A stretch of 64,000 nt of DNA from Candidatus Levybacteria bacterium CG2_30_37_29 (GTDB taxonomy: Bacteria; Patescibacteriota; Microgenomatia; Levybacterales; GWA1-39-11). The stretch spans positions 67,654 through 131,653 of the forward strand of contig MNYS01000009.1 of assembly GCA_001873215.1 (NCBI GenBank), written 5' to 3'. The notes under the pieces were generated by a model. The model saw only the letters and a program-made list of their open reading frames with translations, had not been told where the DNA came from and did no database searches. A program made the position numbers and the translations under genes. Below are positions 3,138 to 52,630 of the stretch, piece by piece (within the stretch, counting starts at the first letter, position 1; each line of letters begins with the position of its first letter).

Positions 3138-5618
3138 ATGAAAATAGGATTTTTTACAGACGGATTTCTTCCCCAGCCAAATGGAGTCGCAACATCTGTT
3201 TTTTCAACCGCCAGAGAGCTTGAAAAAAAAGGCCACGAAGTTTTTGTTGTTGCGCCGAAATACCCCGGCTATAAAGACGAGTTGAATGTTTTTCGCCTGA
3301 CCTCAATAAAGGTTATGAAAAGACCGGAGTTCCGTCTGGCCCTCCATCTACCGGACAAGCCCTTTAGAAAGCTATTGCGCCTTGATTTTGATATAATCCA
3401 TGCCCATTCGCCCGGCCCTGTTGCTTTACTGGGATGGGAAATTGCAAAAGCCAAAGATGTTCCTTTTATTTCCACATATCATACTCTTTGGAACAAATAC
3501 ACGCACTATGTTTTAAAAGGGAAAGTTATTCGCCCTAAAATGGTAGAACAGGCAACCCGCCTTTTTGGAAATAGGTGTGATTATCTTATTGCGCCCACAG
3601 AAAAAGTTAAAAATGAGCTCGTAAGATATGGTATTAAGAGACCAGTAGAAATTGTTCCAACGGGCGTTGATGTGCAAAAATTTGGAGTGTCAAAAAAAGG
3701 GTATTTTTATGAAAAGTTTAAAACCTCCAAAAACGAAAGAATAGCGCTGTGTGTGGTAAGACTCGGAAAAGAAAAATCTGTTGATTTTGTTCTGCGCGCT
3801 TTTAAAAAAATTTTAAAAAAATCTCCAAACACCACGCTTTTTTTAGTTGGAGAAGGGGTTGAGAAAAAAAATCTTTTAAAGCTTGCAAAAAAAATAGGGA
3901 TAGGAAATAAAACGATTTTTACAGGGTTTATTGAGCATGATATTCTGCCTAGGGCTTATGCGGACGCAGATGTTTTTTTGTTTGCTTCGCAAACCGAGAC
4001 TCAAGGAATGGTTATCCTTGAAGCATTTGCATCAGGACTTCCTGTTGTTGCGGTAGATGATGATGCTCTACGCGGCGTGGTTCTGGATGGGGAAAACGGA
4101 TTTTTGGTTGCAAAAGACGAAGAACTTTTTGCGCAAAAGGCTCTTGACGTTTTAGAAAACCCCATGCTTCGCAAAAAACTATCTTTGTGCGCAAAACAAA
4201 CAGCAAAAGAACACTCTGTTTTTCATACAACAGGGATTCTCGAAGCTCTATATAAAGACGTTCTAACAGAAAGAAGCAGAAAAAGCATACAAAAACTTAT
4301 GAATACAAATACCGCCCGAGAGCAACTATATGTTGTGTTGCTTTCTTTTTGGGTTACGATATTTATTGTTAGAATTGCAACATTTTTATTGTATGCGCCA
4401 AAAGGCCCCTACCCCCTTATAGGACTTTTTAATAATTTTTTTACGCATGCCACAATTGGTTTTGTTCTTGTTGCTTTATCTCTTGTTACGTCTTTTAAAA
4501 AAAAGGAATTGCCTCTTTTTGCCCTTCTTTTATTTGGCGTAGGAATAGCCCTTATTTTTGACGAACTTTGGGTATTGGCAACGGGAGGAGCAGCTACGAT
4601 AGTAGATTATTGGGCCAGAGGAAACATGTTGGTAATTGTTTTGGCGGGAGCATTGCCTGCTCTTTTTGTAAAATATATCAAAAAAAACAGGCCCCAGTTT
4701 TTCTTTGGACATCAAAGCCTTGAGCACAGAAACCCCCAAGCCCCAAAAATATCGGTTGTTGTCCCCGCATATAATGAAGAGGAATTTATAGTAAGAACCA
4801 TAAAAAGTCTTGTAAACCAGACACGCAAAGATTTTGAACTAATTGTTGTTGATAACGCATCAACCGACAACACGGGGCTGGTCGCTGCGCAATATGGGGC
4901 AAGAGTTATAAGAGAAGAAAAAAAGGGGGTTGCAAACGCCAGACAGACTGGTTTTATGGCGGCAAAAGGAGAAATTATATTAACAACAGATGCGGACACT
5001 GTTGTTCCGCAGGATTGGATTGAAAAAATTATACCCCATTTTAAAGACGAAAATGTCGCGGCCTTCGGAGGAATTAATAGGCTTTATTCAGGCCCCGTTA
5101 CGGCCCGCGCCGGCTCACGCTATCTTTCAACCCTTTTTTGGGTGGTAGATAAATTTTTATCAGGAGGATGGAATCTTTTAGGGTCAAACCTTTCAGTAAG
5201 AAAATCCTCCTTTTTGGCAATTGGCGGATTTAATACTGCGCTGACCCTGGGTGAAGACGTAGACCTCTCCCAGCGTATTAAAAAAGTCGGAAAAGTTATT
5301 TTGGACCCAAATTTTCTTGTTTTTTCATCCGGAAGAAGATTTAGAAGCGGTCTTATTGTTGGGGTTTTAACATATGCTCCAAGCTGGTTTGCCAGGGTAG
5401 TTTTTAAAAAGGATAAGTTTTTAACTTTTCCCACAATTAGAGACGAGCATTCACTTATTGGAAGATTTACTTTTGTTCCTCTCCTTTTTTGTGTAGTTTT
5501 TCTTGCCACCCTTTTTTATGTGTCTAATCCTAGTGTTTTTCGCGCGCGGGAAATAAGATTTTTGCAAAAAAGCGCTGCTACTTTACAAGAATTTTTTGAT
5601 AAAACACAAAGCAAATAG
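3138..5618 (+). CDS. fusion glycosyltransferase: N-terminal GT1/GT4 domain, central multi-TM segment, C-terminal GT2 GtrB/Ppm-like polyprenyl-phosphate sugar synthase domain with C-terminal TM
   Basis: 826 aa. N-terminus MKIGFFTDGFLPQPNGVATS... (GT4 fold) with the EX7E-like region. Middle hydrophobic block around 4300-4720. C-terminus KISVVVPAYNEEEFI...VVDNASTDNTG is a GT2 DXD-type domain followed by TM helices as in GtrB/Dpm1. Confidence 0.65.
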   Translation: MKIGFFTDGFLPQPNGVATSVFSTARELEKKGHEVFVVAPKYPGYKDELNVFRLTSIKVMKRPEFRLALHLPDKPFRKLLRLDFDIIHAHSPGPVALLGWEIAKAKDVPFISTYHTLWNKYTHYVLKGKVIRPKMVEQATRLFGNRCDYLIAPTEKVKNELVRYGIKRPVEIVPTGVDVQKFGVSKKGYFYEKFKTSKNERIALCVVRLGKEKSVDFVLRAFKKILKKSPNTTLFLVGEGVEKKNLLKLAKKIGIGNKTIFTGFIEHDILPRAYADADVFLFASQTETQGMVILEAFASGLPVVAVDDDALRGVVLDGENGFLVAKDEELFAQKALDVLENPMLRKKLSLCAKQTAKEHSVFHTTGILEALYKDVLTERSRKSIQKLMNTNTAREQLYVVLLSFWVTIFIVRIATFLLYAPKGPYPLIGLFNNFFTHATIGFVLVALSLVTSFKKKELPLFALLLFGVGIALIFDELWVLATGGAATIVDYWARGNMLVIVLAGALPALFVKYIKKNRPQFFFGHQSLEHRNPQAPKISVVVPAYNEEEFIVRTIKSLVNQTRKDFELIVVDNASTDNTGLVAAQYGARVIREEKKGVANARQTGFMAAKGEIILTTDADTVVPQDWIEKIIPHFKDENVAAFGGINRLYSGPVTARAGSRYLSTLFWVVDKFLSGGWNLLGSNLSVRKSSFLAIGGFNTALTLGEDVDLSQRIKKVGKVILDPNFLVFSSGRRFRSGLIVGVLTYAPSWFARVVFKKDKFLTFPTIRDEHSLIGRFTFVPLLFCVVFLATLFYVSNPSVFRAREIRFLQKSAATLQEFFDKTQSK

Positions 5619-9193: not shown

Positions 9194-11059
9194 ATGAGAA
9201 GAAAAACATTTCAGAAAATAAGAATAATTGCCGGCAATAAAAAGAAAACTAGATCTTTAGGTGCTTTTTCTTGTAATAAAAAAATCTATCTGTTTTTTCA
9301 GTTGTCTTCCGATTCACATTTTCAATTTCACGTTGCAACTAGTGTAGATGGCTTTTCTTTCGAGCTTGAAGAACATGATTGTTGCATAGAAAAAGGCGAA
9401 GTAACAAAAGAAGATATTACATTATGTTCCGACTTTAGCATTTTGGAACATGCAGGGCATTTTTTGCTGATGTATGTTCGAAAAGAAAATAAAAAATCGG
9501 TTATTGAAAAAGCTTGGTCCAAAGACTTATTTTCCTGGTCGTATGAAGGAAACATGATTTCTCTTAATCAGAAAGGGATTATTGTGCCAAGCTATGAATA
9601 TAAAAGAAAAAGCGTTCTGTATTCTTCAAATGTATCAATTTTTGCTTACTTTTCAAAGGATTTGATTCATTGGGAAAAAGAAGAAAAAAAACTATTGACC
9701 CCAAGAGATAATTTTTTTGATTCCGGAGAACTTATTGTAGAGCGTGTATTAAATTCCGAGAAAGGAATTTTACTTATATATAATTCAAAAGTTAAAGAAA
9801 CAGCCTTTACGGGGATGGCATTATTTGATAACGATGACCCTACTCGTCTTCTTTGGCAAAGCGCAGAGCCTATCTGGAGTCAGCCGCAAGAATGGAAAGG
9901 AAAAGAAGTACTCCTTGTTGGCTCAATCTTACATAATGGAAGCATTATCTCTTATTGGCAGGTGGAAAACGAAGGAATATATGCAGCAGCTTACGCGGTG
10001 TATAAAGTTTCTGACGGTCATACATCAAAAGATATTTCTTTGAGGCTTAAACGCGTAGGCAATAATCCGTTAATTTCTCCAAACAGTAAAAATGTATGGG
10101 AGTCCTTCAATACATTTAATCCTGCCGCAACATATGACGGCGATAAAGTACATATTTTATATAGGGCGCAAGGTTATGATTATGTTTCGGCGCTTGGATA
10201 TGCAATGAGCCGGGACGGAATTCATATAGATGAGCGTTTGGAGCAGCCTGTTTATATTCCTTCGCAGTCATTTGAGAACATTAACACCACAAAAGTATTT
10301 CAGGTTTCCGCCCAGTATGTTTCTGGAGGTGGATATGGGGGATGTGAAGATCCCCGAATTACACGTATTGATAACCGGTATTATTTGACATACGTTGCGT
10401 TTGATGGAATAAATCCTCCAAGAATTGCGCTTACCTCAATCTCAGCTTACGATTTTTTAAACAGGCGATGGTTATGGGAGCGGCCGGTTTTAATTTCTCC
10501 TCCGGGCATTGTAGATAAGAGTGCCGTTATTTTTCCTGAAAAAATAAACGGAAAATATGTAATTATGCATAGAATTTATCCCGATATTTTAATAGATTTT
10601 GTTGACAACCTAAATTTTGACGGAACGTTTTGGCTCAAAGGTGAATATAAAATCTCTCCTAGGCCCGACAAATGGGACAGTCGTAAAATCGGCGCCGGCG
10701 CCCCTCCTCTTAAAACAAAATATGGCTGGTTGCTTATTTATCAGTCGGTTGGAGAGCAAGATCCAGGGAGATACAAAATCGGAGCAATGTTATTAGACCT
10801 TTTAGATCCGACAAAAGTTCTTTATCGCAGTCAATCTCCTATTCTAGAACCAGAAGAGACTTATGAAAACGACGGTTTTAAATCCGGCGTTATTTATCCT
10901 TGTGGCGCGGTTATTATTGATGATACGCTCTATGTATATTATGGTGGAGCGGATTCATATGTGTGTGTTGCAACTGCAAAGCTTGAAGACTTTTTGACTG
11001 AACTTCGATACTCAGAAGTAGCAAGGCTTACAAAGCCTATTGTGGAAAAAATACTTTAA
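9194..11059 (+). CDS. tandem-domain GH130-family (DUF377) glycoside hydrolase/phosphorylase-like protein, with a divergent N-terminal domain
   Basis: 621 aa. The C-terminal domain has GCEDPRITRIDNRYYLTYVAFDG and FPEKINGKYVIMHRI motifs typical of GH130. The N-terminal domain is GH130-like but lacks the CEDPRI motif. Confidence 0.5.
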   Translation: MRRKTFQKIRIIAGNKKKTRSLGAFSCNKKIYLFFQLSSDSHFQFHVATSVDGFSFELEEHDCCIEKGEVTKEDITLCSDFSILEHAGHFLLMYVRKENKKSVIEKAWSKDLFSWSYEGNMISLNQKGIIVPSYEYKRKSVLYSSNVSIFAYFSKDLIHWEKEEKKLLTPRDNFFDSGELIVERVLNSEKGILLIYNSKVKETAFTGMALFDNDDPTRLLWQSAEPIWSQPQEWKGKEVLLVGSILHNGSIISYWQVENEGIYAAAYAVYKVSDGHTSKDISLRLKRVGNNPLISPNSKNVWESFNTFNPAATYDGDKVHILYRAQGYDYVSALGYAMSRDGIHIDERLEQPVYIPSQSFENINTTKVFQVSAQYVSGGGYGGCEDPRITRIDNRYYLTYVAFDGINPPRIALTSISAYDFLNRRWLWERPVLISPPGIVDKSAVIFPEKINGKYVIMHRIYPDILIDFVDNLNFDGTFWLKGEYKISPRPDKWDSRKIGAGAPPLKTKYGWLLIYQSVGEQDPGRYKIGAMLLDLLDPTKVLYRSQSPILEPEETYENDGFKSGVIYPCGAVIIDDTLYVYYGGADSYVCVATAKLEDFLTELRYSEVARLTKPIVEKIL

Positions 11060-11061
11060 CA

Positions 11062-13005
11062 ATGATTAATATTAAAAGAGATAGTCATAACCCAATTCTA
11101 AAACCTGATTCAAAAAGCCCCTGGGAGTCACAAGCAGTATTTAATGGAAGCGTTATAAAAGAAGACTTATACCATATGGTTTATAGAGCTCTCTCCGACA
11201 CGCAAAATTATGAAGGTAGGCAATTACAGCTTTCAACAATTGGATATGCCAAAAGCGCAGACGGTGTGATTTTTGACAACCGAAAGCAATTTATAAAACC
11301 GGAAATGGATTGGGAAAAATTCGGATGCGAAGATCCGCGAATCACAAAAATAGATGGAGAATATTTTGTTTTTTATACGGCATTATCCGATTATCCGTTT
11401 TATCCTGCGGCAATTAAAATCGGATTAGCGGTATTTTCTGATTTTACCAAACCTGTTGAAAAACATTTAGTGACACCATTTAACTCGAAGGCAATGACTC
11501 TTTTCCCTGAAAAAATAAACGGAAAGTACGCGGCTCTTATTACGGTTAATACTGATATTCCGCCCGCCCGTATATGCCTTGCTCTTTTTGACAAAAAAGA
11601 GGATATATGGTCTCAATCATATTGGAATAGATGGTATCAAAATCTGGCGGATCACATAATTCATTTACGGCGTATGAATTCCGATCAATTAGAGGTTGGC
11701 GCGACTCCTCTTCTTACGCAATATGGATGGCTTTTTATATATGCTCATATTCAACATTATAATAATTCTCAACATAAGATATTTGGAATAGAGGCGGTAT
11801 TGCTTGATTATGATAATCCGCAAAAAATTCTTGAAAGGATTGATTTTCCGATCATGATTCCTGAAAAGGAATATGAGGTAAAAGGTAACGTTCCAAATAT
11901 TGTTTTTCCTTCAGGGGCAACATTAGAAAATGATACCGTTTCACTCTATTACGGAGCTTCAGATTCGGTTTGTTGTCTTGCAACATTTTCGTTAAAAGAA
12001 CTTTTAAAAGAAATGCGGACAGATTCTTCTGTTGCAGTGAAAGCACAAAAACCTTTAGACACTCCGCTTTTTTTGCCTCTTCAATCTCATGAATGGGAAT
12101 CTAAAGCGGTATTAAATCCGGCAGCTTTCTACAATAAAGATACGATTTATTTGGTATATCGAGCTGTATCTTCAGACAACACCTCTGTTTTTGGATATGC
12201 TAGAAGCTTGGATGGAGTTTCGGTAGTTGGGCGGCGCGAAATGCCAATCTATGTTCCGCGAGCAGAATTTGAAATTAAAAAAAATCCCGGTGGAAATTCA
12301 GGGTGTGAAGATCCGCGAATTACGCAAATAGAAGACAGGCTTTATATGTGTTATACGGCCTATGACGGAGTCAATCCTCCCCGTGTAGCATTAACATCAA
12401 TTGCTGTTACGGATTTTCTCAACACTAATTTTAATTGGGTAGATCCTATTCTTATATCTCCACCCGGAATTGACGATAAAGACGCCGCTATTTTCCCCGA
12501 AAAAATAAAAGGGAAATATGTAATTATTCATAGAATACAAAATTCAATAGTGCTGGATTATGTTGAAAACCTAAATTTTACAGGGAAAAATTGGCTCAGA
12601 AGTATTTCGTATATTCCGCCACGCGGAGATTCATGGGACAGTGAAAAAATAGGCCTTTGTACTCCTCCTTTGAAAACAGCGGAAGGCTGGATACTTCTTT
12701 ACCACGGAGTTAGCAAGATAAGCCACGAATATCGTGTAGGAGCAATGCTTCTTGATTTAGAAGATCCGAGCAATGTTATTTCAAGAGCTCCATGGCCGAT
12801 TCTTGAGCCGGAATTACCGTTTGAGCGGGAAGGTATTGTTAAAAACGTTGTGTTTCCGTGCGGTGCGGTAGTAAAAGATGATACGCTTTTTATTTATTAC
12901 GGAGGGGCGGATAAGGTTGTATGTGTGGCAACAATTAAGCTTTCTTTATTATTAAATTATTTGCTTAGAGTGAAAAACAATAAGTTTTTATTGAGTTTAA
13001 AATAA
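11062..13005 (+). CDS. tandem-domain GH130-family glycoside hydrolase/phosphorylase-like protein (two GH130 domains)
   Basis: 647 aa. Two repeats each carry GCEDPRIT(K/Q)I... and FPEKI(N/K)GKY motifs. Paralog of the preceding gene. Confidence 0.55.
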   Translation: MINIKRDSHNPILKPDSKSPWESQAVFNGSVIKEDLYHMVYRALSDTQNYEGRQLQLSTIGYAKSADGVIFDNRKQFIKPEMDWEKFGCEDPRITKIDGEYFVFYTALSDYPFYPAAIKIGLAVFSDFTKPVEKHLVTPFNSKAMTLFPEKINGKYAALITVNTDIPPARICLALFDKKEDIWSQSYWNRWYQNLADHIIHLRRMNSDQLEVGATPLLTQYGWLFIYAHIQHYNNSQHKIFGIEAVLLDYDNPQKILERIDFPIMIPEKEYEVKGNVPNIVFPSGATLENDTVSLYYGASDSVCCLATFSLKELLKEMRTDSSVAVKAQKPLDTPLFLPLQSHEWESKAVLNPAAFYNKDTIYLVYRAVSSDNTSVFGYARSLDGVSVVGRREMPIYVPRAEFEIKKNPGGNSGCEDPRITQIEDRLYMCYTAYDGVNPPRVALTSIAVTDFLNTNFNWVDPILISPPGIDDKDAAIFPEKIKGKYVIIHRIQNSIVLDYVENLNFTGKNWLRSISYIPPRGDSWDSEKIGLCTPPLKTAEGWILLYHGVSKISHEYRVGAMLLDLEDPSNVISRAPWPILEPELPFEREGIVKNVVFPCGAVVKDDTLFIYYGGADKVVCVATIKLSLLLNYLLRVKNNKFLLSLK

Positions 13006-28815: not shown

Positions 28816-29907
28816 ATGGGTAATAATTTACGCGGTGTTTTGCGAGCACATTCTGTGAAAAAAGGGAAAACTGTTCTTCTTAGAATTGATACAGACGTTG
28901 ATTTTGTAGGCGGAAAAATTCTTGATGATACAAGACTAACTGCTTGTGACAAAACACTCTCTTATCTTTTGAAAAAAGGTGCGGATGTTATTCTTTTGGG
29001 GCATCTTGGAAGACCAACTGAAAGTCAAAAATCAAAAATCAAAAGTCAAAAGTACGCAGAAGAGTTTAGTTTGGAGCCGGTTGCCAAGTGGTTTGCAAAA
29101 CACTACAAGGGAATTGTTGAAAAAAGAATGATAGGTGAATTTGAAGGATGGGAAATAACTCCGCATCTCCATTTGCTCGAAAATCTCCGTTTTTTTTCAG
29201 GCGAGGAAGCAAACGATAAAGAATTTAGCCGGTCGCTTTCCATTTTGGGAGACTTTTATGTAAATGATGCGTTCGCCGTTTCTCACAGATCCCACGCAAG
29301 CATAGTGGGAATTGCAGAGCTTCTTCCGTCTTATGCCGGATTTCATTTAGAAAAAGAAATTGAAACATTAGGGAACATTTTAAAAGACCCAAAAAGACCG
29401 CTTACGGTACTTATTGGAGGTGCAAAAATTGAAACAAAATTGCCTCTTGTTGAGAAGATGCATAGAATAGCAGACTATGTGTTGGTTGGTGGAGAAATAG
29501 CCGAGCAGGACGCAATGCTTATAAAAGTACAGCACGAAAAAATAAATCCGCCTGCCGGCGGAAAAAAATCTGCGGTTCTGGTTGCCGATAATATATCAAG
29601 CGGCTTGGATATTACCGATAAAGACGCAGAAAATTTTATTCAAATTCTGGACATTTCAAAAACAATTGTTTGGAATGGGCCGGTTGGGAAAATGGGAGTA
29701 ACTGAAACTGAAAGAAATACTTTAAGAATTGCAAAGGCGGTTGCAAGCTCAAAAGCATACACAGTGGTAGGAGGCGGTGATACTCTTGCGCTACTAAAAG
29801 AGCATAATCTTCTTAATAAATTTTCATTTGTTTCAACAGGCGGCGGAGCAATGCTTGAATTTTTATCAGGTAAAGAACTCCCCGGAATCGAAGCGCTGAA
29901 AAAGTAG
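28816..29907 (+). CDS. pgk: phosphoglycerate kinase
   Basis: VLLRIDTDV...LLGHLGRP N-terminal motifs. The start was set at the internal Met to avoid overlap with the PBP gene. Ends ...ELPGIEALKK*. Confidence 0.88.
   Translation: MGNNLRGVLRAHSVKKGKTVLLRIDTDVDFVGGKILDDTRLTACDKTLSYLLKKGADVILLGHLGRPTESQKSKIKSQKYAEEFSLEPVAKWFAKHYKGIVEKRMIGEFEGWEITPHLHLLENLRFFSGEEANDKEFSRSLSILGDFYVNDAFAVSHRSHASIVGIAELLPSYAGFHLEKEIETLGNILKDPKRPLTVLIGGAKIETKLPLVEKMHRIADYVLVGGEIAEQDAMLIKVQHEKINPPAGGKKSAVLVADNISSGLDITDKDAENFIQILDISKTIVWNGPVGKMGVTETERNTLRIAKAVASSKAYTVVGGGDTLALLKEHNLLNKFSFVSTGGGAMLEFLSGKELPGIEALKK
29877..29902. repeat. direct repeat copy A (pgk 3' end, CTCCCCGGAATCGAAGCGCTGAAAA)
   Basis: Same 25-mer recurs at 30984-31008. 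A degenerate copy sits at 31161-31186. Confidence 0.8.
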
Positions 29908-29946
29908 TTTACAATCGTCTAAAAATCGTCTATAATACGGCTATCT

Positions 29947-30981
29947 ATGTTCCTTCCGCAATACAAAATAACTGACAAACTTTTAGCCAATATTAAACGC
30001 ATTAACACGTTAGTTTCCGAGCTTAATAATAAAAGGTTTCCTAGTGTTGTACTTTTAGATCTTGAAAGAACAGCCTGCGAAGTGTCTTCGTATGCTTCAA
30101 CCAGTATAGAAGGTAATCCACTACCACTAACCGAAGTCAAAAAGATTTTAAAGACGACGCCAATAAGCATTCGGGATAGTGAAAAAGAGGTGTTAAATTA
30201 CAACAAAGCTTTAGAAGATTTAAACACAAAGCTTAAGAAAGGCAATGTAAAGCTTTCGCTTGAGCTTATTTTACAAATTCAAAAACATGTTACCAGAGGG
30301 CTTCTTCCCTTTTTTGAAGTTGGCAGTTTTAGAGAAAAGCCAGTAGTTGTAAACGACCCCAAAACACGAAAGGTTGTATATTTGCCTCCTGATGTAAAAG
30401 ACGTAAAATCGCTTATGGAAAATCTTATAACGTTTGTCAAAAACAATAAGGAAAATATCGACCCGCTTATACTTGCCGGGGTATTCCATAAACAAATGGT
30501 AATTATTCATCCTTTCATGGATGGAAACGGTAGGACGACAAGGCTTGCTACAAAGGTGTTACTTTTTGAAATGGGGCTTGATACATTTAATCTTTTTAGT
30601 TTTGAAAATTACTACAACAATAATGTTGCTAATTATTTTCAGACAGTTGGGGAATTTGGAAACTATTATGATTTAGTTGATAAAATTGATTTTACTGTTT
30701 TTCTTGAATATTTTACGGATGGCATAATAGATGAACTTTTAAGGGTTAAAAAAATGCTTCCCGAAGTTTTGGCAACTCCGCAAAGCACCTTAAAACCGTA
30801 TCACGAGAAAGCAATGGAGTTTATCCGAGAGAATGGATTTATTACCGACCGTGATTATTCAAAAATTGTTGACAGGGCAAAAGCAACAAGAGCTCTTGAT
30901 TTTCAAAAGTTAATATCTTTAGGTTTAATTGAGAGAAAAGGGAAAGGAAGAGCAACGTATTACATACTAAAAACAAAGTAA
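29947..30981 (+). CDS. Fic-family protein (AMPylase/Doc-like) with C-terminal winged HTH
   Basis: 344 aa. Canonical Fic motif HPFMDGNGRTTRL. C-terminal KGKGRATYYILK wHTH-like. Confidence 0.85.
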   Translation: MFLPQYKITDKLLANIKRINTLVSELNNKRFPSVVLLDLERTACEVSSYASTSIEGNPLPLTEVKKILKTTPISIRDSEKEVLNYNKALEDLNTKLKKGNVKLSLELILQIQKHVTRGLLPFFEVGSFREKPVVVNDPKTRKVVYLPPDVKDVKSLMENLITFVKNNKENIDPLILAGVFHKQMVIIHPFMDGNGRTTRLATKVLLFEMGLDTFNLFSFENYYNNNVANYFQTVGEFGNYYDLVDKIDFTVFLEYFTDGIIDELLRVKKMLPEVLATPQSTLKPYHEKAMEFIRENGFITDRDYSKIVDRAKATRALDFQKLISLGLIERKGKGRATYYILKTK

Positions 30982-30982
30982 T

Positions 30983-31050
30983 CCTCCCCGGAATCGAAGC
31001 GCTGAAAAGATAATCACTTTATTTTTAGTTTTTCAAGCATGATTTCAAGG
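30983..31050. repeat. direct repeat copy B: degenerate duplicate of the pgk-3'-end/cmk-3'-end convergent junction
   Basis: Carries the pgk-end 25-mer plus ATAATCACTTTATTTTTAGTTTTTCAAG, a degenerate copy of the cmk-like gene 3' end. That part reads in reverse as ...LEKLKIK*, against the genuine ...LEKLKVK*. Confidence 0.75.
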
Positions 31051-31160
31051 GTTTCGCGCGCGAAAACTTTTTGAGAACACTTTTAAAATCCATGCGTAAT
31101 TGAGGTGGCACCTCAAATAGATTCGATTTTCTCCAGCTGCATTGATTTGCCGAAGTGACT

Positions 31161-31214
31161 CTTCTCAGAATCGAAGCGCTGAAAAAATAATCACTTTACT
31201 TTTAGCTTCTCAAG
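31161..31214. repeat. direct repeat copy C: junction copy attached to the genuine cmk 3' end
   Basis: CTTCTCAGAATCGAAGCGCTGAAAAAATAATCACTTTACTTTTAGCTTCTCAAGG. The pgk-end part is degenerate and the cmk-end part is genuine. Confidence 0.75.
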
Positions 31215-31775
31215 GGCGATTTGGAGAGAGTCTTCTTTGTTGTGGTCAAAGGAGTTAATTACCAAATCGTAGTATTTTTTATCAAAATAAACCCAATTAG
31301 GATCGTTACTTGCATAAAGCTTTCTCCATTTTTCCAAATCATTTTTTTCCCGTGTCAGAACCTCTTCTTTTGCATCTGCAACGCTTAACCCCTCACGGTT
31401 TATAAGTCTGTCAATTCTTATATCGACATGATCTTCTCCGTTCTCTTCACATACAACAAGAATTTTAAAAATATTATCAATTCCTTGTGCGTTGAATCCC
31501 GCAAGTTTTGTTTCAAGCACGATTTGTTTGTCTTCTCTAAGCATCTTTTCAAGTTGCTTATCAAACAAAACATCTTCCTCATCCGGTCTTAGATTTGTAT
31601 CTTTTGGGTCAAGTCCAAGTTTTCCCCGAACCGCTTCCCAAAAAATTTCCCCGCCCTCTACGTGTTTCCAATTAAGTTTTTGGGCAAGTAATTTTGCCAG
31701 AGTTGTTGAGCCGGATGCAATGCGACCGGAAATGGTAATAATACGAATATTATCAATCTTTTGAGGAATATCCAT
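31191..31775 (-). CDS. cmk: archaeal-type cytidylate kinase-like P-loop kinase
   Basis: 194 aa. ITISGRIASGSTTLAKLLAQKL...GEIF and YDLVINS match the CMP kinase 2 family. Confidence 0.55.
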   Translation of the reverse strand: MDIPQKIDNIRIITISGRIASGSTTLAKLLAQKLNWKHVEGGEIFWEAVRGKLGLDPKDTNLRPDEEDVLFDKQLEKMLREDKQIVLETKLAGFNAQGIDNIFKILVVCEENGEDHVDIRIDRLINREGLSVADAKEEVLTREKNDLEKWRKLYASNDPNWVYFDKKYYDLVINSFDHNKEDSLQIALEKLKVK

Positions 31776-43792: not shown

Positions 43793-44224
43793 TTAAATTT
43801 TGTGGTCAAGAGCCAAGTTTACCATTCTGTCTGCTGCAAAATTTTTCTCTCGCGGAATGGCGTGATAAAAAATTTTTCCTTCTAATTTTTCCTCAAGACT
43901 TTTTATGGTAAAAAACAGACTTCTCAAATTCTCATTTTTTATTTTCCAAAGTCCACCCAATTGGGATGCGACAAGTTGTGAATCAAGAAAAAACTGTACG
44001 GTAATATTGTCTTTATCAACATTTTTTACAAGCCATTGGAGCGCAGCAACAACACCTGAATATTCCGCGACATTATTGGTATTTATTCCAATTCTTTTTC
44101 CTTCTTGGTAAATAATTTCGTTTTCCCCGTCTTGCACAACAAATCCATACGCCGCTTCTCCTGGGTTTCCCCGCGACCCGCCATCGGTAAATATAATAAA
44201 ATCCGGTTTGTTAGTTGAATTCAT
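43793..44224 (-). CDS. rnhA: ribonuclease HI
   Basis: 143 aa. FTDGGSRGNPGEAAYGFVV catalytic DxxG...E pattern. Confidence 0.85.
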   Translation of the reverse strand: MNSTNKPDFIIFTDGGSRGNPGEAAYGFVVQDGENEIIYQEGKRIGINTNNVAEYSGVVAALQWLVKNVDKDNITVQFFLDSQLVASQLGGLWKIKNENLRSLFFTIKSLEEKLEGKIFYHAIPREKNFAADRMVNLALDHKI

Positions 44225-45468
44225 ATATTTTTCGTCCTTTGTAATGCTAAATATACCACCATTCCGCTAAAAACAATTCCCTCACAAATAACTGTTATAA
44301 CAGATGCGGCAATATAAGAATAGTGGGGGATATAAAAAATGTTTAAGACAATATTTAAAAACAGTGAAAAAAGATAAAGAAAAATTAAAAACATTTTTTT
44401 GTTTTCTATAACAAGAACCCATTGTAAAATACTTGTTAAGAAAAAAAACGGAAGTGATAATGAAAGTATTCTAATTGGAAGAATTACATAAGAAAGCTCG
44501 GGTTTTAATACGGGTAGTAAGGGTGATAGAAAAAAAACAAAAAATATAAAAACAATCGAGATAAGAGTTAGTAGAAAAGAATAACGCTTAATATCCCGAT
44601 AGAAAAATGATGTAGATTTTTTTTCAAGAAGAAGAGGGTAAATGCTGTTTGCAAAAAAAGCAGGAATAGCAATAAGGAATTCAAAGATGCGATAGGAAAA
44701 TCCATAGATACCAATATCTCCTGTTGGTCTTAAAAATGACAAAATAACAGTGTCGGCTTTTGCATAAATCAAATTAAAAAGAAGAATTAATCCAAGAGGA
44801 GCAGAGGAAAAAAGAAGAGGTTTTGAAAATTTGAAAAAATTGTGTACCTTTTTTTTCACAGGAAATTTTTTCAAAACCGAAAAGAAAAGTAAAACACCGA
44901 ATAAAATTCCGGACATAACATAAGATAAAAGAATAATATAAATATTTTGTAAAAAGGTTCCGGCGAGGACAAAAGAAAGCAATGTTACAGATGTAATAAA
45001 TGAAGGAATAATTGATGTTTTGTAATTTTTTGTTTTCTGCTGAATTGCAGCAAATGAAATTGCAAGCCCTTGAGTAAAAAGAGTAAAAGAATAAATAAGT
45101 ATTCCAATTTTTTCAAACGGTGAAAATCCGATAGAAGATGCTGCGTTATAGGGAAGAACAATCGTTATAAGTCCTATGCAAATATATAAAATTAAAGAAA
45201 GCAAAAACCGTAACAAAATAAGATTTATAAAATTTTTTTCAATCTCCTCGCGTGTTTTTTGGATAAAAATTCCGTTAATTCCAAAATCAACCGCCAAGTA
45301 AAATAGTGATACAAAAGTTACAATTTTTGTAAAACTTCCAAAAAGTGAAATTCCAAGAAAATAGGAAATAAGAAGGGTTACGATTAAAGTTGAAAAACTT
45401 GATAAAAATCTCACGGTTAATTGAGAAATGGTGTTGGTAAAAATATTTCTTAGCCCGAGATTTTCCAT
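44221..45468 (-). CDS. Wzx-like (MOP superfamily) polysaccharide/oligosaccharide flippase
   Basis: 415 aa, about 12 TM helices. N-terminus MENLGLRNIFTNTISQ... typical of polysaccharide biosynthesis proteins. Confidence 0.5.
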   Translation of the reverse strand: MENLGLRNIFTNTISQLTVRFLSSFSTLIVTLLISYFLGISLFGSFTKIVTFVSLFYLAVDFGINGIFIQKTREEIEKNFINLILLRFLLSLILYICIGLITIVLPYNAASSIGFSPFEKIGILIYSFTLFTQGLAISFAAIQQKTKNYKTSIIPSFITSVTLLSFVLAGTFLQNIYIILLSYVMSGILFGVLLFFSVLKKFPVKKKVHNFFKFSKPLLFSSAPLGLILLFNLIYAKADTVILSFLRPTGDIGIYGFSYRIFEFLIAIPAFFANSIYPLLLEKKSTSFFYRDIKRYSFLLTLISIVFIFFVFFLSPLLPVLKPELSYVILPIRILSLSLPFFFLTSILQWVLVIENKKMFLIFLYLFSLFLNIVLNIFYIPHYSYIAASVITVICEGIVFSGMVVYLALQRTKNI

Positions 45469-45470
45469 AA
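45436..45470. repeat. direct repeat (flippase gene 5' end), copy 1
   Basis: GGTAAAAATATTTCTTAGCCCGAGATTTTCCATA. A near-identical copy (one mismatch) sits at 46234-46268. Confidence 0.8.
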
Positions 45471-45503
45471 TTTAGATAGTTATATAGATAAATTGGTGCA
45501 TAG

Positions 45504-45881
45504 TTATTTTCTGGTTTTTGTTATTTTATCATTAGAGATTAAAATCACTGAGTTTGCAATAACGCTTCTTTTAATTTTTGGAAGCTGTTTTTTACAAATG
45601 CTATTAATATGTTTAGGTGCGTTTGATCCTACCGTAATAACAACTATCCCTTTAGTTCCCTCTGCTCGCGCCGTAGTATAACCCAAAAAATCACGATCGA
45701 GAGTTATTAGTGTTTTGCCAAGTTTCTTTGCATGCTTTAAATGAGAAATGTCAGGTTTGTTTAAAAAATTATATTCCAAAGCATGTCTTATTGAATAGCC
45801 TAAAGATCGAAGATATAAAACGGTTGTAAAAGGGAAGCACTCATCAGCGTATATTTGTAGATCCGATTTCTTAGAGGGCAT
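45504..45881 (-). CDS. DUF5615-family PIN-like putative toxin
   Basis: 125 aa. LQIYADECFP...LITLDRDFLGY...GIVVI pattern of DUF5615. Overlaps the upstream DUF433 gene by 11 nt. Confidence 0.55.
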   Translation of the reverse strand: MPSKKSDLQIYADECFPFTTVLYLRSLGYSIRHALEYNFLNKPDISHLKHAKKLGKTLITLDRDFLGYTTARAEGTKGIVVITVGSNAPKHINSICKKQLPKIKRSVIANSVILISNDKITKTRK

Positions 45882-46062
45882 ACTGACCAGTGAATTCTCT
45901 GTTCTTTATTTCATCAAGTGCTTTTTTGATATTTTTTTCCTTGATCCAAGGATAAGAAGTAACAAAATCGGAAACGTTATATCCTTCTTTTAGATAATCA
46001 AGCAAGAAAGCTATTGGAATTTTACTTCCCGGAACCAGATTCTTTTTATTTACTGTTTTCAT
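45871..46062 (-). CDS. DUF433-family putative antitoxin
   Basis: 63 aa. VPGSKIPIAFLLDYLKEGYNVSDFVTSYPWI...KALDEI matches the DUF433 signature. Confidence 0.55.
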   Translation of the reverse strand: MKTVNKKNLVPGSKIPIAFLLDYLKEGYNVSDFVTSYPWIKEKNIKKALDEIKNREFTGQYAL

Positions 46063-46233
46063 ATGAAAATTATATCATATCTTGGATTATATTTCCTGTT
46101 TTGGCCGTGAATTGGGTAAAATTATCCCCTTGTAAGCTAGGTGAGTTGCCTCACGCAAGGCATGGAGCCTGCTTTCACTTATAAGGAGCCCATGTAATTA
46201 TATAATAAGCAATATAAAAAAACAAAGTCAAGG

Positions 46234-46268
46234 GGGTAAAAATATTTCTTAGCCCGAGATTCTCCATA
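46234..46268. repeat. direct repeat (flippase gene 5' end), copy 2 (relic)
   Basis: GGTAAAAATATTTCTTAGCCCGAGATTCTCCATA. Includes a relic ATGGAGAATCTCGGGCTAAG start identical to the flippase N-terminus. Confidence 0.8.
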
Positions 46269-46329
46269 TTGACGTAAATTGAATTATATCAGGAATTAGT
46301 TTGCGCGTTAAAGTTTTTTTCAACCAAAA

Positions 46330-46347
46330 TAGTATTTAAATCCCAGC
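46330..46347. repeat. 18-nt direct repeat flanking the GIY-YIG gene (left)
   Basis: TAGTATTTAAATCCCAGC. The right copy TAGTATTTAAATCCTAGC is at 46672-46689. Confidence 0.6.
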
Positions 46348-46357
46348 TGCAAAAAAA

Positions 46358-46633
46358 TTAATAGATTGCTCTGCAGTTTACAAGATCATCCTTTTGTTCA
46401 TGTGTCAATTTTTTCAATTCTTTTTCCCTAAGCATTGCAAAACTTCTTGTTTGGTATGGTTCAATATGGACAAATTTTACAGGTCTGCGAGTTTCAGTAT
46501 AGTTAGCACCGCGAAATTTACCAATACCGTTGTGTTCTTTTTCTCTCTCAACTATATTATCAGTTTGCCCGGTATAATAACTGCCATCTGAGCATTGGGC
46601 GAGATATACATAAAAGACAGGAGGACGAAGCAT
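46358..46633 (-). CDS. GIY-YIG nuclease family small protein (UPF0213/SLX1-like)
   Basis: 91 aa. VFYVYLAQCSDGSYYTGQTDNIVEREKEHN is a GIY-YIG motif with catalytic R/E/N. Confidence 0.75.
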   Translation of the reverse strand: MLRPPVFYVYLAQCSDGSYYTGQTDNIVEREKEHNGIGKFRGANYTETRRPVKFVHIEPYQTRSFAMLREKELKKLTHEQKDDLVNCRAIY

Positions 46634-46671
46634 AATAAAAGAGTAGCACAGAAAGTAGAGAAATGAAAATT

Positions 46672-46689
46672 AGTATTTAAATCCTAGCA
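46672..46689. repeat. 18-nt direct repeat flanking the GIY-YIG gene (right)
   Basis: 17/18 identical to 46330-46347. Confidence 0.6.
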
Positions 46690-46915
46690 GTGGTAAAATA
46701 ACACCAAATTTATATATGAAAATTCAGGATGATATTTTAAGTTATCGCGAGATGTGCGACGCGGAAAACGTACAGACGCTCCAGCGCGGTATGAATTATC
46801 GTTTAAACCCTCAGTATTCTGTGATTCTTATGTCTCAGAGATCAAATGCGCCCTGTTTTTTAATTTGACTTCTTGGCAACCTGTTTTCCCTAATTAGTAG
46901 TGATATACTGGAGCT

Positions 46916-51419: not shown

Positions 51420-51783
51420 TAAAGAATATTACCGCAAGATTACCGAGGTATTTCCGCGCCTTTTGTCTTCTGTCAAAACGCCTCTTTTAGAACTTCTTTG
51501 TTTGTTTCTTTTTCTGTTGGTGTTGTTTTTTGTTTGGGAGATAAATTATCTTTGGAATATATATCAGTCTGTAAAAAGCCAGCGGGCATACGTTGTACAA
51601 AAAGAGAAATATTGGGAAGGTGTAATCACACAACATCCTAATTTTCCTGACGCTTATTATCAAGCGGCGAGTTATGTCCTGAAACTTTCAGACAGTAAAA
51701 AAGCAGAAAAATTTCTTAACAAAGCGCTAATGCTTGATCCGAATTTTAAAGAGGCAATTGAATTAAAAAAAAGCTTGAATTAG
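51412..51783 (+). CDS. small TPR-like protein with N-terminal TM, hypothetical
   Basis: 123 aa. One hydrophobic helix and a TPR-like C-terminus. Confidence 0.3.
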   Translation: MINKEYYRKITEVFPRLLSSVKTPLLELLCLFLFLLVLFFVWEINYLWNIYQSVKSQRAYVVQKEKYWEGVITQHPNFPDAYYQAASYVLKLSDSKKAEKFLNKALMLDPNFKEAIELKKSLN

Positions 51784-51895
51784 AAGAGTTACACGACGCT
51801 TCAAGAAAACCGTGGACTTTAGTTCGCGGATGAATTGAAGGAAGTGAACATCTTTCCTTAGGGACGAAGCCCTGGCGTTCATGCCAGGGAAGATG

Positions 51896-52630
51896 TTATT
51901 CTCCTTTAGACGGTTCTTCCTTTGGTTTTTCAGAAGTCTCTTCAGTTTTCTCACCCTCGTCTGGTTTTTCTTCTCCCTCTTTTGCTTCCCCGCCTTCGGC
52001 GCCTTCGCCTGCTGTTTCTGCTGCTGCGACTTCTGCTGCTGCTTCTTCTGCCGCCGCTTCTGCTTCTGCTTCTTTTGTGACAAGCTCACCAATTTTGAAC
52101 ACTGTTTGGTCACCGTCTGTAATCATGGTAACACCGGTAGGCAAAGAAATATTTGAAACAAGAATACTTTGGTCGACCTCAGAAAGACTTTCTACATTTA
52201 CTTCAATTTTTTCAGGAAGGTCTGTTGGAAGAGCTTCAATTTCAAGCTCGTTTATTAAGTGAAGAAGTAGCCCAATTTTATTGGTAACTGCTTGCGGTTC
52301 GCCAACTGCGACAACTGGAATTTTTGCCACAATTTTTTCTTTAAGATTTACTTTGAAGAAATCTGCATGAAGTGTGTCGCGGCTTTTTGGCTCAATTTGT
52401 ACATTGTGGATAAGAACAGGAATTGTTTGTCCGTCGAAAGCAAGATCAACAAGTCCTGTTTCGTGAACCTCGTTAAAAACTTTTTTAAATTCTTTTACAG
52501 GAAGTTGAACCATTTGGGATTTGATGTCTTTTCCATAGATATTTCCCGGTAGTATTCCATCTCTGCGCAGCTTGCGTACTTGTTTTCCGCTGATTGTCCT
52601 TTTTTCAACTTTTAGATTTTCCCGCTTCAT
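51896..52630 (-). CDS. rplY: 50S ribosomal protein L25 / general stress protein Ctc form with acidic low-complexity C-terminal tail
   Basis: 244 aa. MKRENLKVEKRTISGKQVRKLRRDGILPGNIYGK is a classic L25 N-terminus. The tail is E/A/K-rich. Confidence 0.85.
   Translation of the reverse strand: MKRENLKVEKRTISGKQVRKLRRDGILPGNIYGKDIKSQMVQLPVKEFKKVFNEVHETGLVDLAFDGQTIPVLIHNVQIEPKSRDTLHADFFKVNLKEKIVAKIPVVAVGEPQAVTNKIGLLLHLINELEIEALPTDLPEKIEVNVESLSEVDQSILVSNISLPTGVTMITDGDQTVFKIGELVTKEAEAEAAAEEAAAEVAAAETAGEGAEGGEAKEGEEKPDEGEKTEETSEKPKEEPSKGE

Follow-up and report, generated by a model that had tools for sequence, protein, structure and literature searches.

A Fic gene cassette between repeated copies of the pgk/cmk junction in a Candidatus Levybacteria genome

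Introduction

How can a gene enter a junction at which two housekeeping genes converge almost without a gap, leave both of them intact and carry nothing that would move it? The question is raised by a 64-kb stretch of DNA from Candidatus Levybacteria bacterium CG2_30_37_29 (contig MNYS01000009.1), hereafter called the window, on which a gene for a Fic-domain protein lies between the convergent genes pgk and cmk. An initial annotation of this DNA had pointed out that the end of pgk recurs behind the Fic gene and had proposed one or two insertions with target duplications of 30-60 bp. The analysis reported here showed the anatomy of this junction, its empty form in relatives, the recurrence of the arrangement elsewhere and the mobility of the Fic cassette. 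We consider it probable that the cassette is a selfish single-gene unit and that the pgk/cmk junction received at least two insertions, each of which was accompanied by a long target duplication.

Results

Repeated copies of the pgk/cmk junction

The region comprises the following features. Positions refer to the window; L-numbers (L024, L164, L181 etc.) denote loci that were fetched from relatives.

28816-29907, plus strand: pgk, phosphoglycerate kinase (Pfam PGK, 8.6e-89; 363 aa in the gene calls of other assemblies)
29878-29902, plus strand: copy A, CTCCCCGGAATCGAAGCGCTGAAAA, the functional 3' end of pgk and left direct repeat of the Fic cassette (found by repeat search)
29903-29946, plus strand: 5' end of the Fic cassette, with the promoter TTTACA-17-TATAAT at 29908-29936
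29947-30981, plus strand: gene for a Fic/Fido-domain protein of 344 aa (Pfam Fic PF02661, 3.8e-18)
30984-31008, plus strand: copy B, an exact copy of the pgk end, right repeat of the Fic cassette and left part of an older duplication
31009-31056, minus strand: c', a decayed copy of the cmk 3' end (..ETLEIMLEKLKIK-stop)
31057-31152, no strand: remnant X, about 95 nt, containing the hairpin TTGAGGTGGCACCTCAA
31153-31160, plus strand: the octamer AAGTGACT, identical to the Fic 3' end of L169 plus 2 nt and 5/8 identical to the window's own Fic end AAGTAATC
31161-31190, plus strand: copy C, a degenerate pgk end, whose 25-nt part (31161-31185) lies 177 nt beyond copy B and matches at 22/25 positions
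31191-31775, minus strand: cmk-like gene, archaeal-type (d)CMP kinase family (Pfam Cytidylate_kin2, NCBIfam TIGR02173)

Copy A consists of the final 25 nt of pgk ahead of its last codon and stop. Copy B begins 2 nt past the Fic stop codon and is identical to copy A at all 25 positions; a single-nucleotide polymorphism (SNP) at 30995 within copy B occurred in one strain. An exact repeat of 25 nt at a distance of 1.1 kb far exceeds chance. The repeat search and the reading frames confirmed the coordinates and translations that had been given for the exact and the degenerate recurrence: on the plus strand, copies A, B and C read LPGIEALKK, LPGIEALKR and LLRIEALKK, respectively, each followed by a stop. 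No further copies of the 25-nt repeat were found by this search in the 64-kb window. Copy A contains the last eight codons of pgk (C-terminus LSGKELPGIEALKK-stop), and the final lysine codon and stop of the gene (AAG TAG) come from the left end of the insert (AGTAG).

Copies B and C are parts of a longer repeat, in which 30976-31045 and 31153-31222 are identical at 57/70 positions and which can be traced to about 31056/31233 (62/81). It begins 8 nt inside the Fic 3' end and spans the 3' end of cmk; about 14 last codons of cmk lie within the C-side copy (c). At copy C the pgk-like stop (31188-31190) directly touches the complement of the cmk stop (31191-31193). Read on the minus strand, the copy B side ends in ..ETLEIMLEKLKIK-stop versus ..DSLQIALEKLKVK-stop at the genuine cmk end, and c' is nearer to the cmk end of L165/L166 (ESLEITLEKLKIK-stop in the L166 DNA) than to the window's own cmk. 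Taken together, copy B and c' read like a junction at which an intact pgk end meets a cmk end without a gap. Instead of the 30-60 bp proposed before, the younger duplication (A/B) measures 25 nt and the older one (B+c'/C+c) about 73-80 nt. Two insertions are now the minimum where one or two had been estimated: the older duplication flanks the ~95-nt remnant and the younger one the Fic cassette.

The remnant itself had already been recognised, at 31061-31155; its bounds had to be moved to approximately 31057-31152, since 31153-31160 match a Fic 3' end. Neither pgk, cmk and the Fic cassette nor the remainder of the window and the fetched loci contain anything significantly similar to it, and Rfam gave no match. 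As candidates, a decayed interior of pgk or cmk (tandem duplication) and a decayed Fic promoter or open reading frame (ORF) were tried, neither of which scored above shuffled controls. Remnant X is presumed to be the leftover of an older insert. The adjoining 31153-31189 is 95% identical (35/37) to L169 1202-1238, which shows that copy C in all likelihood once adjoined a Fic 3' end.

The start of the B/C repeat inside the Fic 3' end would also fit a local duplication after a single Fic insertion, in which a stretch of ~90 nt (Fic 3' end, pgk-end repeat and cmk end) was copied when X entered the cmk end or by replication slippage. L169, where Fic is followed by one C-type repeat, resembles the state before such a duplication, and small insertions similar to miniature inverted-repeat transposable elements (MITEs) do occur here, as exemplified by an insert of ~90 nt with a duplicated CTAA in L169. 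However, the supposedly older copies A and B are identical while the supposedly younger B and C have diverged by 19%, X is not homologous to the interior of cmk or pgk, so that a simple tandem duplication does not apply, and the Fic gene of L169 is followed by a gene other than cmk. We therefore regard a local duplication as unlikely.

Short repeats can mislead assemblers, and the repeated junction could in principle have been created during assembly or go back to an old structural duplication that has nothing to do with insertion. Yet the same layout was present in more than 20 independent metagenome assemblies, obtained with different assemblers from different samples. Eighteen of 20 loci from independent ENA and JGI assemblies were colinear with the window over 29700-31359 and showed 0-3 SNPs; the other two were colinear over 29796-31400, with 11 and 15 differences. 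Because of this agreement, the layout is not an assembly artefact. Moreover, some relatives possess an empty junction and others harbor different cargo at the same junction (see below), and the triplicated arrangement without a Fic gene was not seen in relatives. The probability of this explanation is negligible.

Around the junction, the gene order is PBP1a, pgk, Fic, the repeats, cmk-like and gapdh (both on the minus strand), rpmH, rnpA and yidC. The neighbours are all housekeeping genes, and in agreement with the initial annotation no transposase or integrase was annotated (Pfam) within ~6 kb on either side.

The Fic 3' end (..LKTK-stop) and the fossil cmk 3' end (..LKIK-stop) form a 17-nt inverted repeat (30966-30982/31013-31029, 88% complementary) that brackets copy B. 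It could be a bidirectional terminator or chance; its complementarity was judged to lie within the chance background of the region.

Empty and altered junctions in relatives

Relatives were identified via their PGK and cmk homologues. Four loci (L181-L184; one NCBI genome and three ENA contigs) whose cmk, PGK and GAPDH products are 81%, 65% and 72% identical to those of the window, respectively, contain the empty junction that had been sought in genomes lacking the Fic gene: PBP and pgk run towards cmk and gapdh, and only 3 nt (GTT) separate the two stop codons. The single-copy sequence at this junction aligns to copies A, B and C. Because an empty pgk/cmk junction exists in L181-L184, copy B together with c' is, as far as the sequence tells, the fossil of an uninterrupted junction. 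The anatomy and the empty site thus uphold the original proposal that the Fic gene entered the place where pgk and cmk converge and is now bounded by repeated copies of this junction. Contigs of the same species with an empty Fic site were not found, the insertion being fixed in every contig checked.

Other relatives carry different genes at this place. In L166-L168 (PGK 73%) an unrelated gene for 227 aa without Pfam match occupies the junction (L166 6074-6995), and L165 (PGK 75%; 3609-5224) harbors a second pgk, whose product is 41% identical to the window PGK and which has its own promoter, plus a GNAT acetyltransferase gene. A degenerate pgk end beside cmk was not significant in either L165 or L166. 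In the sister species (L164, PGK 86%; L185, GAPDH 86.5%; both from SRR22387758), the PBP1a stop abuts the cmk stop with no pgk between them; pgk, with ~40 nt of its own upstream sequence, and Fic reside downstream of a homologue of the window ORF 51763-52113 (L164 1-1776, L185 1560-2792). The left pgk-Fic junction of L164 (..CTGAAAAAGTAG/TTTACAATCG) is identical to that of the window. Judged from these borders, pgk and Fic seem to have moved together in the sister species, as one block whose ends coincide precisely with gene boundaries. Since relatives possess empty, rearranged or differently loaded versions of it, the pgk/cmk junction is a hotspot of gene gain and rearrangement within conserved synteny.

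The Fic cassette

The cassette has a size of 1.08 kb and contains a single gene. Homology between Fic loci (78 loci compared) starts at the -35 hexamer and stops at the stop codon, and the promoter/operator block is kept upstream of Fic in nearly all of them, with the consensus TTGACA-ATCGTCTAATAATCGTC-TATAAT-ACGTCTAT-ATG. The window promoter agrees with the consensus at 11/12 positions. It is overlaid by three CGTCTA/CGGCTA motifs at intervals of 11 nt, which constitute a putative operator. Between the -10 element and the ATG there are only 8-10 nt (10 nt in the window), without a Shine-Dalgarno sequence. The Fic transcript would therefore probably be leaderless or nearly so, and autoregulated. 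Some cassettes (L164 1197-1232; L025, L044, L041, L047, L049) contain an additional ~36-45 nt between the -10 region and the ATG (..GGAGTATTTCAAGCTTTGCTTCTAATACGACTAT); this insert repeats the ATACGNCTAT box and makes a genuine 5' leader.

The protein possesses the active-site motif HPFMDGNGRTTR, which fits HxFx(D/E)GNGRxxR, and an inhibitory motif, STSIEGN, at residues ~51-57, which aligns with the TVAIEGN region of FICD and is accompanied by a weak Fic_N match. By these two motifs it is classified as a predicted auto-inhibited AMP-transferase of class II type. Its best relatives in the PDB are FICD/HYPE and SoFic. A weak winged-helix match (HVO_A0114) at residues 282-337 suggests a probable C-terminal winged-helix, DNA-binding domain. 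The protein is 100% identical to a protein of Candidatus Levybacteria (Microgenomates, candidate phyla radiation). As to a separate antitoxin, there is no ORF in the 39 nt between pgk and Fic and no conserved ORF downstream. The designation as toxin, used previously, is therefore only partly apt: the inhibitory motif is N-terminal in the same polypeptide and no separate antitoxin gene exists.

Terminal inverted repeats were not found at the ends of the cassette, nor was a transposase or integrase gene found within it. Its G+C content is slightly below that of the neighbouring genes. The MITE-like insertion of ~90 nt in L169 (1093-1196) lies inside the last Fic codons and changes the C-terminus of the protein from ..ILKTK to ..ILRVRPSITS.

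Spread of the Fic family

Databases contained more than 4,600 homologues of the Fic protein. A set of species-representative genomes yielded 207 relatives, 80 of whose loci were fetched; together with the window, 81 loci were available. The top 120 homologues are 73-100% identical, and homologues with 60-78% identity occur across Patescibacteria. The 80 loci span Levy-, Davies-, Roizman-, Gottesman-, Shapiro-, Curtiss-, Woyke- and Pacebacteria, CPR2 and Saccharibacteria. The flanking gene pair differs at all 81 loci, the 136 flanking ORFs falling into 131 clusters, and in none of the 80 other genomes is Fic located beside pgk or cmk. Five of nine Levybacteria Fic copies have their nearest relative in another phylum-level lineage (identity up to 85.8%); the PGKs of other Levybacteria-labelled hits are 55-64% identical to the window PGK. 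Fic similarity tracks taxonomy loosely, and these data show that the cassette is mobile between bacteria of the candidate phyla radiation.

Close relatives were absent from IMG/VR contigs, and the best matches among INPHARED phages and PLSDB plasmids reached at most 33% and 29% identity, respectively. A scan of metagenome contigs for PGK yielded only proteins of 33-43% identity and no close relative. Genes for tRNAs lie beside the cassette at 11 of 80 loci versus 6.9 expected (P = 0.06), for which no enrichment is claimed.

In a Daviesbacteria-like subfamily, the Fic gene resides in arrays of small accessory genes (NYN nucleases, HTH_3, Bro-N and unknowns) that are punctuated by a conserved element of 131 nt (CTATTGTACTTTGCTATGCATCTTTTAG..GGTACTAGCGGGnTCAC):

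L024: 2593-2751, 4619-4758, 8326-8388
L025: 4846-5002, 7036-7165
L033, L034, L035, L049: several copies each

About 40 nt following a tRNA-Lys gene are duplicated deeper in the array in L025 and L034, and L024 carries the same duplicated sequence. No integrase was seen in these array loci. Because Daviesbacteria-like Fic copies sit in such arrays, the gene clearly travels on more than one kind of vehicle. The 131-nt element was also considered as an attC-like site or structured RNA and was rejected as such, as it displayed neither conserved structure or covariation nor an Rfam hit.

On a Moranbacteria contig (L099 8048-10373), four imperfect palindromes of 55-59 nt (TAAAGACATCCGGTGTCTTT..GAGACACCGGATGTCTAAAT), spaced by 550-880 nt, were noticed 1 kb downstream of Fic; they may be an attC-like cassette array or a repeat of the repetitive extragenic palindromic type.

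Flanking duplications at other loci

At each locus, 220 nt upstream of the promoter were aligned with 226 nt around and after the stop codon. Cross-locus pairs served as null distribution, with the 99th percentile as cut-off, and two contig-edge artefacts were removed. Seven of 74 Fic loci exceeded the cut-off, compared to 0.7 expected (binomial P = 1e-5). The flanking repeats were:

Window: 25 nt, exact
L076: 44 nt, 86%; covers the 3' end of the neighbour
L072: 51 nt, 82%; convergent gene pair, covers a 3' end
L065: ~66 nt
L032: ~33 nt
L059: 20 nt; covers the 3' end of the neighbour
L029: ~50 nt
L064 (borderline): 14 nt exact plus a degenerate extension; covers the 5' end of a ychF-like GTPase gene
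L170 (fetched separately, outside the 74): ~55 nt; covers the 3' end of the neighbour

Where repeats exist, one copy usually covers the terminus of a neighbouring gene. They are unrelated in sequence between loci (window, L059, L064, L072, L076, L170), and a shared pgk-end core was found within the sub-lineage of the window, L164 and L169. A serine recombinase gene ~4 kb from Fic occurred in L170 only.

Long variable direct repeats around a small element without mobility gene could also stem from a non-autonomous MITE-like transposon moved in trans, with long variable target duplications as in mycoplasma elements of the IS1634/IS1630 type; IS1630 has been cited as duplicating targets of variable length (PMC2853133). 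The Fic cassette, however, lacks terminal inverted repeats, its duplications range from 14 to ~80 nt instead of being short and fixed, its ends are a promoter and a stop codon and otherwise not conserved, and its neighbourhood is devoid of a transposase gene. We deem such a transposon very improbable.

The same anatomy was detected at a second place in the window:

45436-46268, minus strand: cassette with a toxin-antitoxin pair of DUF433 (45871-46062) and DUF5615/PIN-like (45504-45881) genes

This pair, which has an apparent promoter of its own, is flanked by a direct repeat of 34 nt (45436-45469 and 46235-46268; 33/34 identical, the sole difference being synonymous). The repeat comprises the start codon and 10 codons (MENLGLRNIFT) of a Polysacc_synt (flippase-like) gene at 44221-45468. 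The insertion lies 33 nt into this gene, and the repeat regenerates its first 11 codons. No empty DUF433/DUF5615 site was found in the 24 same-species contigs read, in all of which the insertion is fixed.

Adjoining this cassette, a small GIY-YIG nuclease gene (46358-46633, minus strand) is flanked by a 33-nt direct repeat (46326-46699; 79%, core TAGTATTTAAATCC), which may mark a third such cassette or be due to chance. Elsewhere in the window, at 9194-13005, there are two adjoining large genes (621 and 647 aa) with internal repeats (families D1, D2 and D7; spacing ~980 nt), which appear to be tandem paralogues or to encode repeat-domain proteins.

Discussion

Proposed course of events

The insertion, the empty site, the duplication and the mobility of the cassette are well supported, while the enzymology of the process is uncertain. 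According to the explanation we favour, pgk and cmk would originally have abutted. A first insertion would have duplicated ~75-80 nt over both gene ends, resulting in the order pgk with its end (p), c', insert, second pgk end (p') and cmk with its end (c). The right end of this insert would have been a Fic-type 3' end, because AAGTGACT and copy C match the right flank of the L169 Fic gene at 35/37 positions; the insert would since have decayed to the ~95 nt of X plus the 8-nt Fic-type end. In a second event the present cassette would have entered the pgk end of the left copy, generating the 25-nt duplication A/B, and the left end of the cassette, AGTAG, would have supplied the last lysine codon and the stop of pgk. 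A site from which Fic had been excised would read pgk, the 25-mer and GATAATCAC...

Because neither a recombinase gene nor terminal repeats are present, the most likely route is that the host captured cassette DNA, either incoming or excised, at a staggered break that was then filled in. The direct repeats and the flanking genes could then act as homology arms for spread or replacement among relatives by homologous recombination, and Fic toxicity (addiction) would favour retention. Both pgk and cmk are intact since the duplication restores the ends at which they were interrupted, and it is because gene ends are rebuilt that the insertions can survive in a genome with almost no intergenic DNA. 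The locus thereby illustrates how selfish genes settle where hardly any intergenic space exists.

Several observations weigh against this course of events. No enzyme or intermediate of the insertion was found, and about 90% of the Fic loci are without a detectable flanking repeat; at such loci the repeats could have decayed with age, or the cassette could have come in by another way. The Fic-type right junctions before copy B and before copy C are located at the same pgk-end nucleotide, which is unexpected for two independent random staggered breaks. Copies A and B are identical at 25/25 positions, although the sister locus L164 shares the left junction at an overall nucleotide identity of 83%; an old neutral copy should have drifted. 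In L169, whose cassette is 90% identical in DNA, C-type pgk-end-like repeats occur on both sides in a context other than cmk, which suggests that the repeat can travel with the cassette. Finally, remnant X matches none of the sequences with which it was compared, and the 25 nt of the A/B duplication are below the 30-bp criterion of Furuta et al.

The observations on the right junctions, on the identity of A and B and on L169 would fit an integration of the attachment (att) site or homology-driven (Campbell) type. Here, the Fic element would be a circle with an imitation of the pgk 3' end of its own. Crossing over with the pgk end on the chromosome would take place within the shared core GAATCGAAGCGCTGAAAAA, by means of a recombinase in trans or of RecA, and the element would replace the last pgk codons and the stop. 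Copy A would be attL (chromosomal left arm and element right arm, GTAG/TTTACA) and copy C attR (element left arm, AAGTGACT-CTTCTCA, and chromosomal right arm, ATAA/TCAC..cmk); the circle would carry CTTCTCA-GAATCGAAGCGCTGAAAAA-GTAG. As a variant, a single ancestral unit of p, Fic and p might have spread or been replaced by homologous recombination, with pgk and the repeat as arms. The exact and sharply bounded identity of A and B, and the position of both Fic-type right junctions at one nucleotide, agree with such an integration, as do the element-type arms on both sides of the 90% identical cassette of L169, where homology to the window ends exactly at the pgk-like stop. So does the pgk-Fic left junction of L164, which is the same despite the different genomic place of pgk. 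The Daviesbacteria-like arrays, with the 131-nt element by tRNA-Lys and the duplicated tRNA-downstream sequence, have a classic att-like layout. On the other hand, neither the cassette nor the surrounding ~6 kb contain an integrase gene, conservation between cassettes stops at promoter and ORF, leaving no candidate for a common attP, the repeats at other loci differ in sequence and measure 14 to ~66 nt, and in L169 the left flank extends only 17 nt beyond the pgk-end-like repeat. Copy B with c' would remain unexplained, since it has chromosomal arms on both sides and ~45 nt of the cmk end. Because of this copy, and because no recombinase or common att site is visible, we consider integration of the att type the main rival, possible but clearly less probable than insertions with long target duplication.

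More tentatively, and rather doubtfully at present, the unit of promoter, operator and Fic gene could be viewed, within the candidate phyla radiation, as a minimal autonomous selfish element, which would spread like unrelated toxin-antitoxin cassettes by a general mechanism free of transposase and integrase. An equally speculative part of this idea is that such a mechanism would act on the ends of genes, copying 14-80 nt of the target with each insertion. A connection to DNA uptake and repair is conceivable in these naturally competent bacteria with their ultra-compact genomes. By analogy to DNA breakage by restriction enzymes, insertion might also be promoted by an activity of the cargo, e.g., if Fic perturbed topoisomerases. 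Fic and PIN-like cargo do not support cargo-driven DNA breakage; since Fic and toxin-antitoxin cargo does not cut DNA, a host-side or general mechanism is favoured. With more than 4,600 homologues, 207 relatives and 81 contexts that all differ, the Fic family represents many independent insertions, from which the rules for choosing a target, for repeat length and for decay could well be worked out.

Comparison with known systems

The Fic protein shares with the SoFic/BtFic type (FICD/HYPE core) the Fic motif, the inhibitory (S/T)xxxE(G/N) and a length of ~340-370 aa. Like FicTA modules, the cassette exhibits operator-like repeats over its own promoter that suggest autoregulation. It differs from characterised Fic proteins by an identity of only 25-30%, and from FicTA, which has a separate antitoxin gene, by the lack of such a gene. 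In our literature search no report of this Fic cassette family in the candidate phyla radiation was found.

In integrons, as in the Fic family, single promoter-proximal genes move, and toxin-antitoxin cargo is common. Unlike integron cassettes, the Fic cassette has its own promoter, and neither an attC-like folded site nor IntI is present; in most loci nothing is conserved past the Fic stop codon that could be such a site. Integrons, moreover, do not duplicate their target.

Att-flanked elements without integrase (CIMEs) and integrative elements that target 3' ends and bring a replacement end along resemble the Fic locus in having flanking direct repeats, one of which is the functional 3' end of a conserved gene, and no integrase inside; in addition, the arms of copies A and C have the appearance of donor/recipient hybrids. 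The differences are that no integrase-bearing partner was seen, that the repeats at other Fic loci differ entirely and that copy B has chromosomal arms on both sides. Of the properties of a site-specific element, neither a linked recombinase (within 6 kb on either side) nor a common att core across independent Fic insertions was found.

The closest similarity exists to insertion with long target duplication. Nobusato et al. (Gene 259:99) reportedly described such insertions of restriction-modification gene units in 2000. They are known for restriction-modification units of Helicobacter, Haemophilus, Neisseria and other, mostly naturally competent bacteria (PMC2853133; PMC3874152). The repeats are long and variable and often lie over gene 3' ends; the mechanism is unknown, and DNA breakage by the cargo has been proposed as common cause (PMC2853133). 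A review ties long target duplication to restriction-modification units only (PMC3874152). Our literature search, which was limited, did not find it described for toxin-antitoxin or Fic genes. As a published precedent exists, the locus is less enigmatic than the initial annotation, which had called the mechanism unclear, implied.

Furuta, Abe and Kobayashi (2010; PMC2853133) demanded flanking repeats that are single-copy in the empty genome and longer than 30 bp, the absence of a mobile element and an insert of less than 20 kb. At the Fic locus, the empty-site sequence aligns accordingly, the 1.08-kb insert is free of mobile elements within 6 kb on either side, and the B/C repeat with ~73-81 nt lies above the required length, the A/B repeat with 25 nt below it. 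Both kinds of locus consist of an addictive unit without mobility gene between long variable direct repeats, which are single-copy in an empty-site relative and often extend over the 3' end of a neighbour. They differ in the cargo, which is Fic here (DUF433/DUF5615 at 45 kb), and in the host, a bacterium of the candidate phyla radiation. Because of this cargo, the DNA-cleaving driver proposed for restriction-modification units is absent here. Further differences from the restriction-modification cases are that one duplication has 25 nt only, that two events are nested and that a duplication spans two convergent gene ends. For 25 years, insertion with long target duplication has been unexplained and tied to restriction-modification, with cleavage by the cargo proposed as its cause. 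The same anatomy now appears with a cargo that does not cut DNA and in a very different bacterial group; the Fic locus thus extends a known but poorly understood kind of gene mobility beyond restriction-modification cargo.

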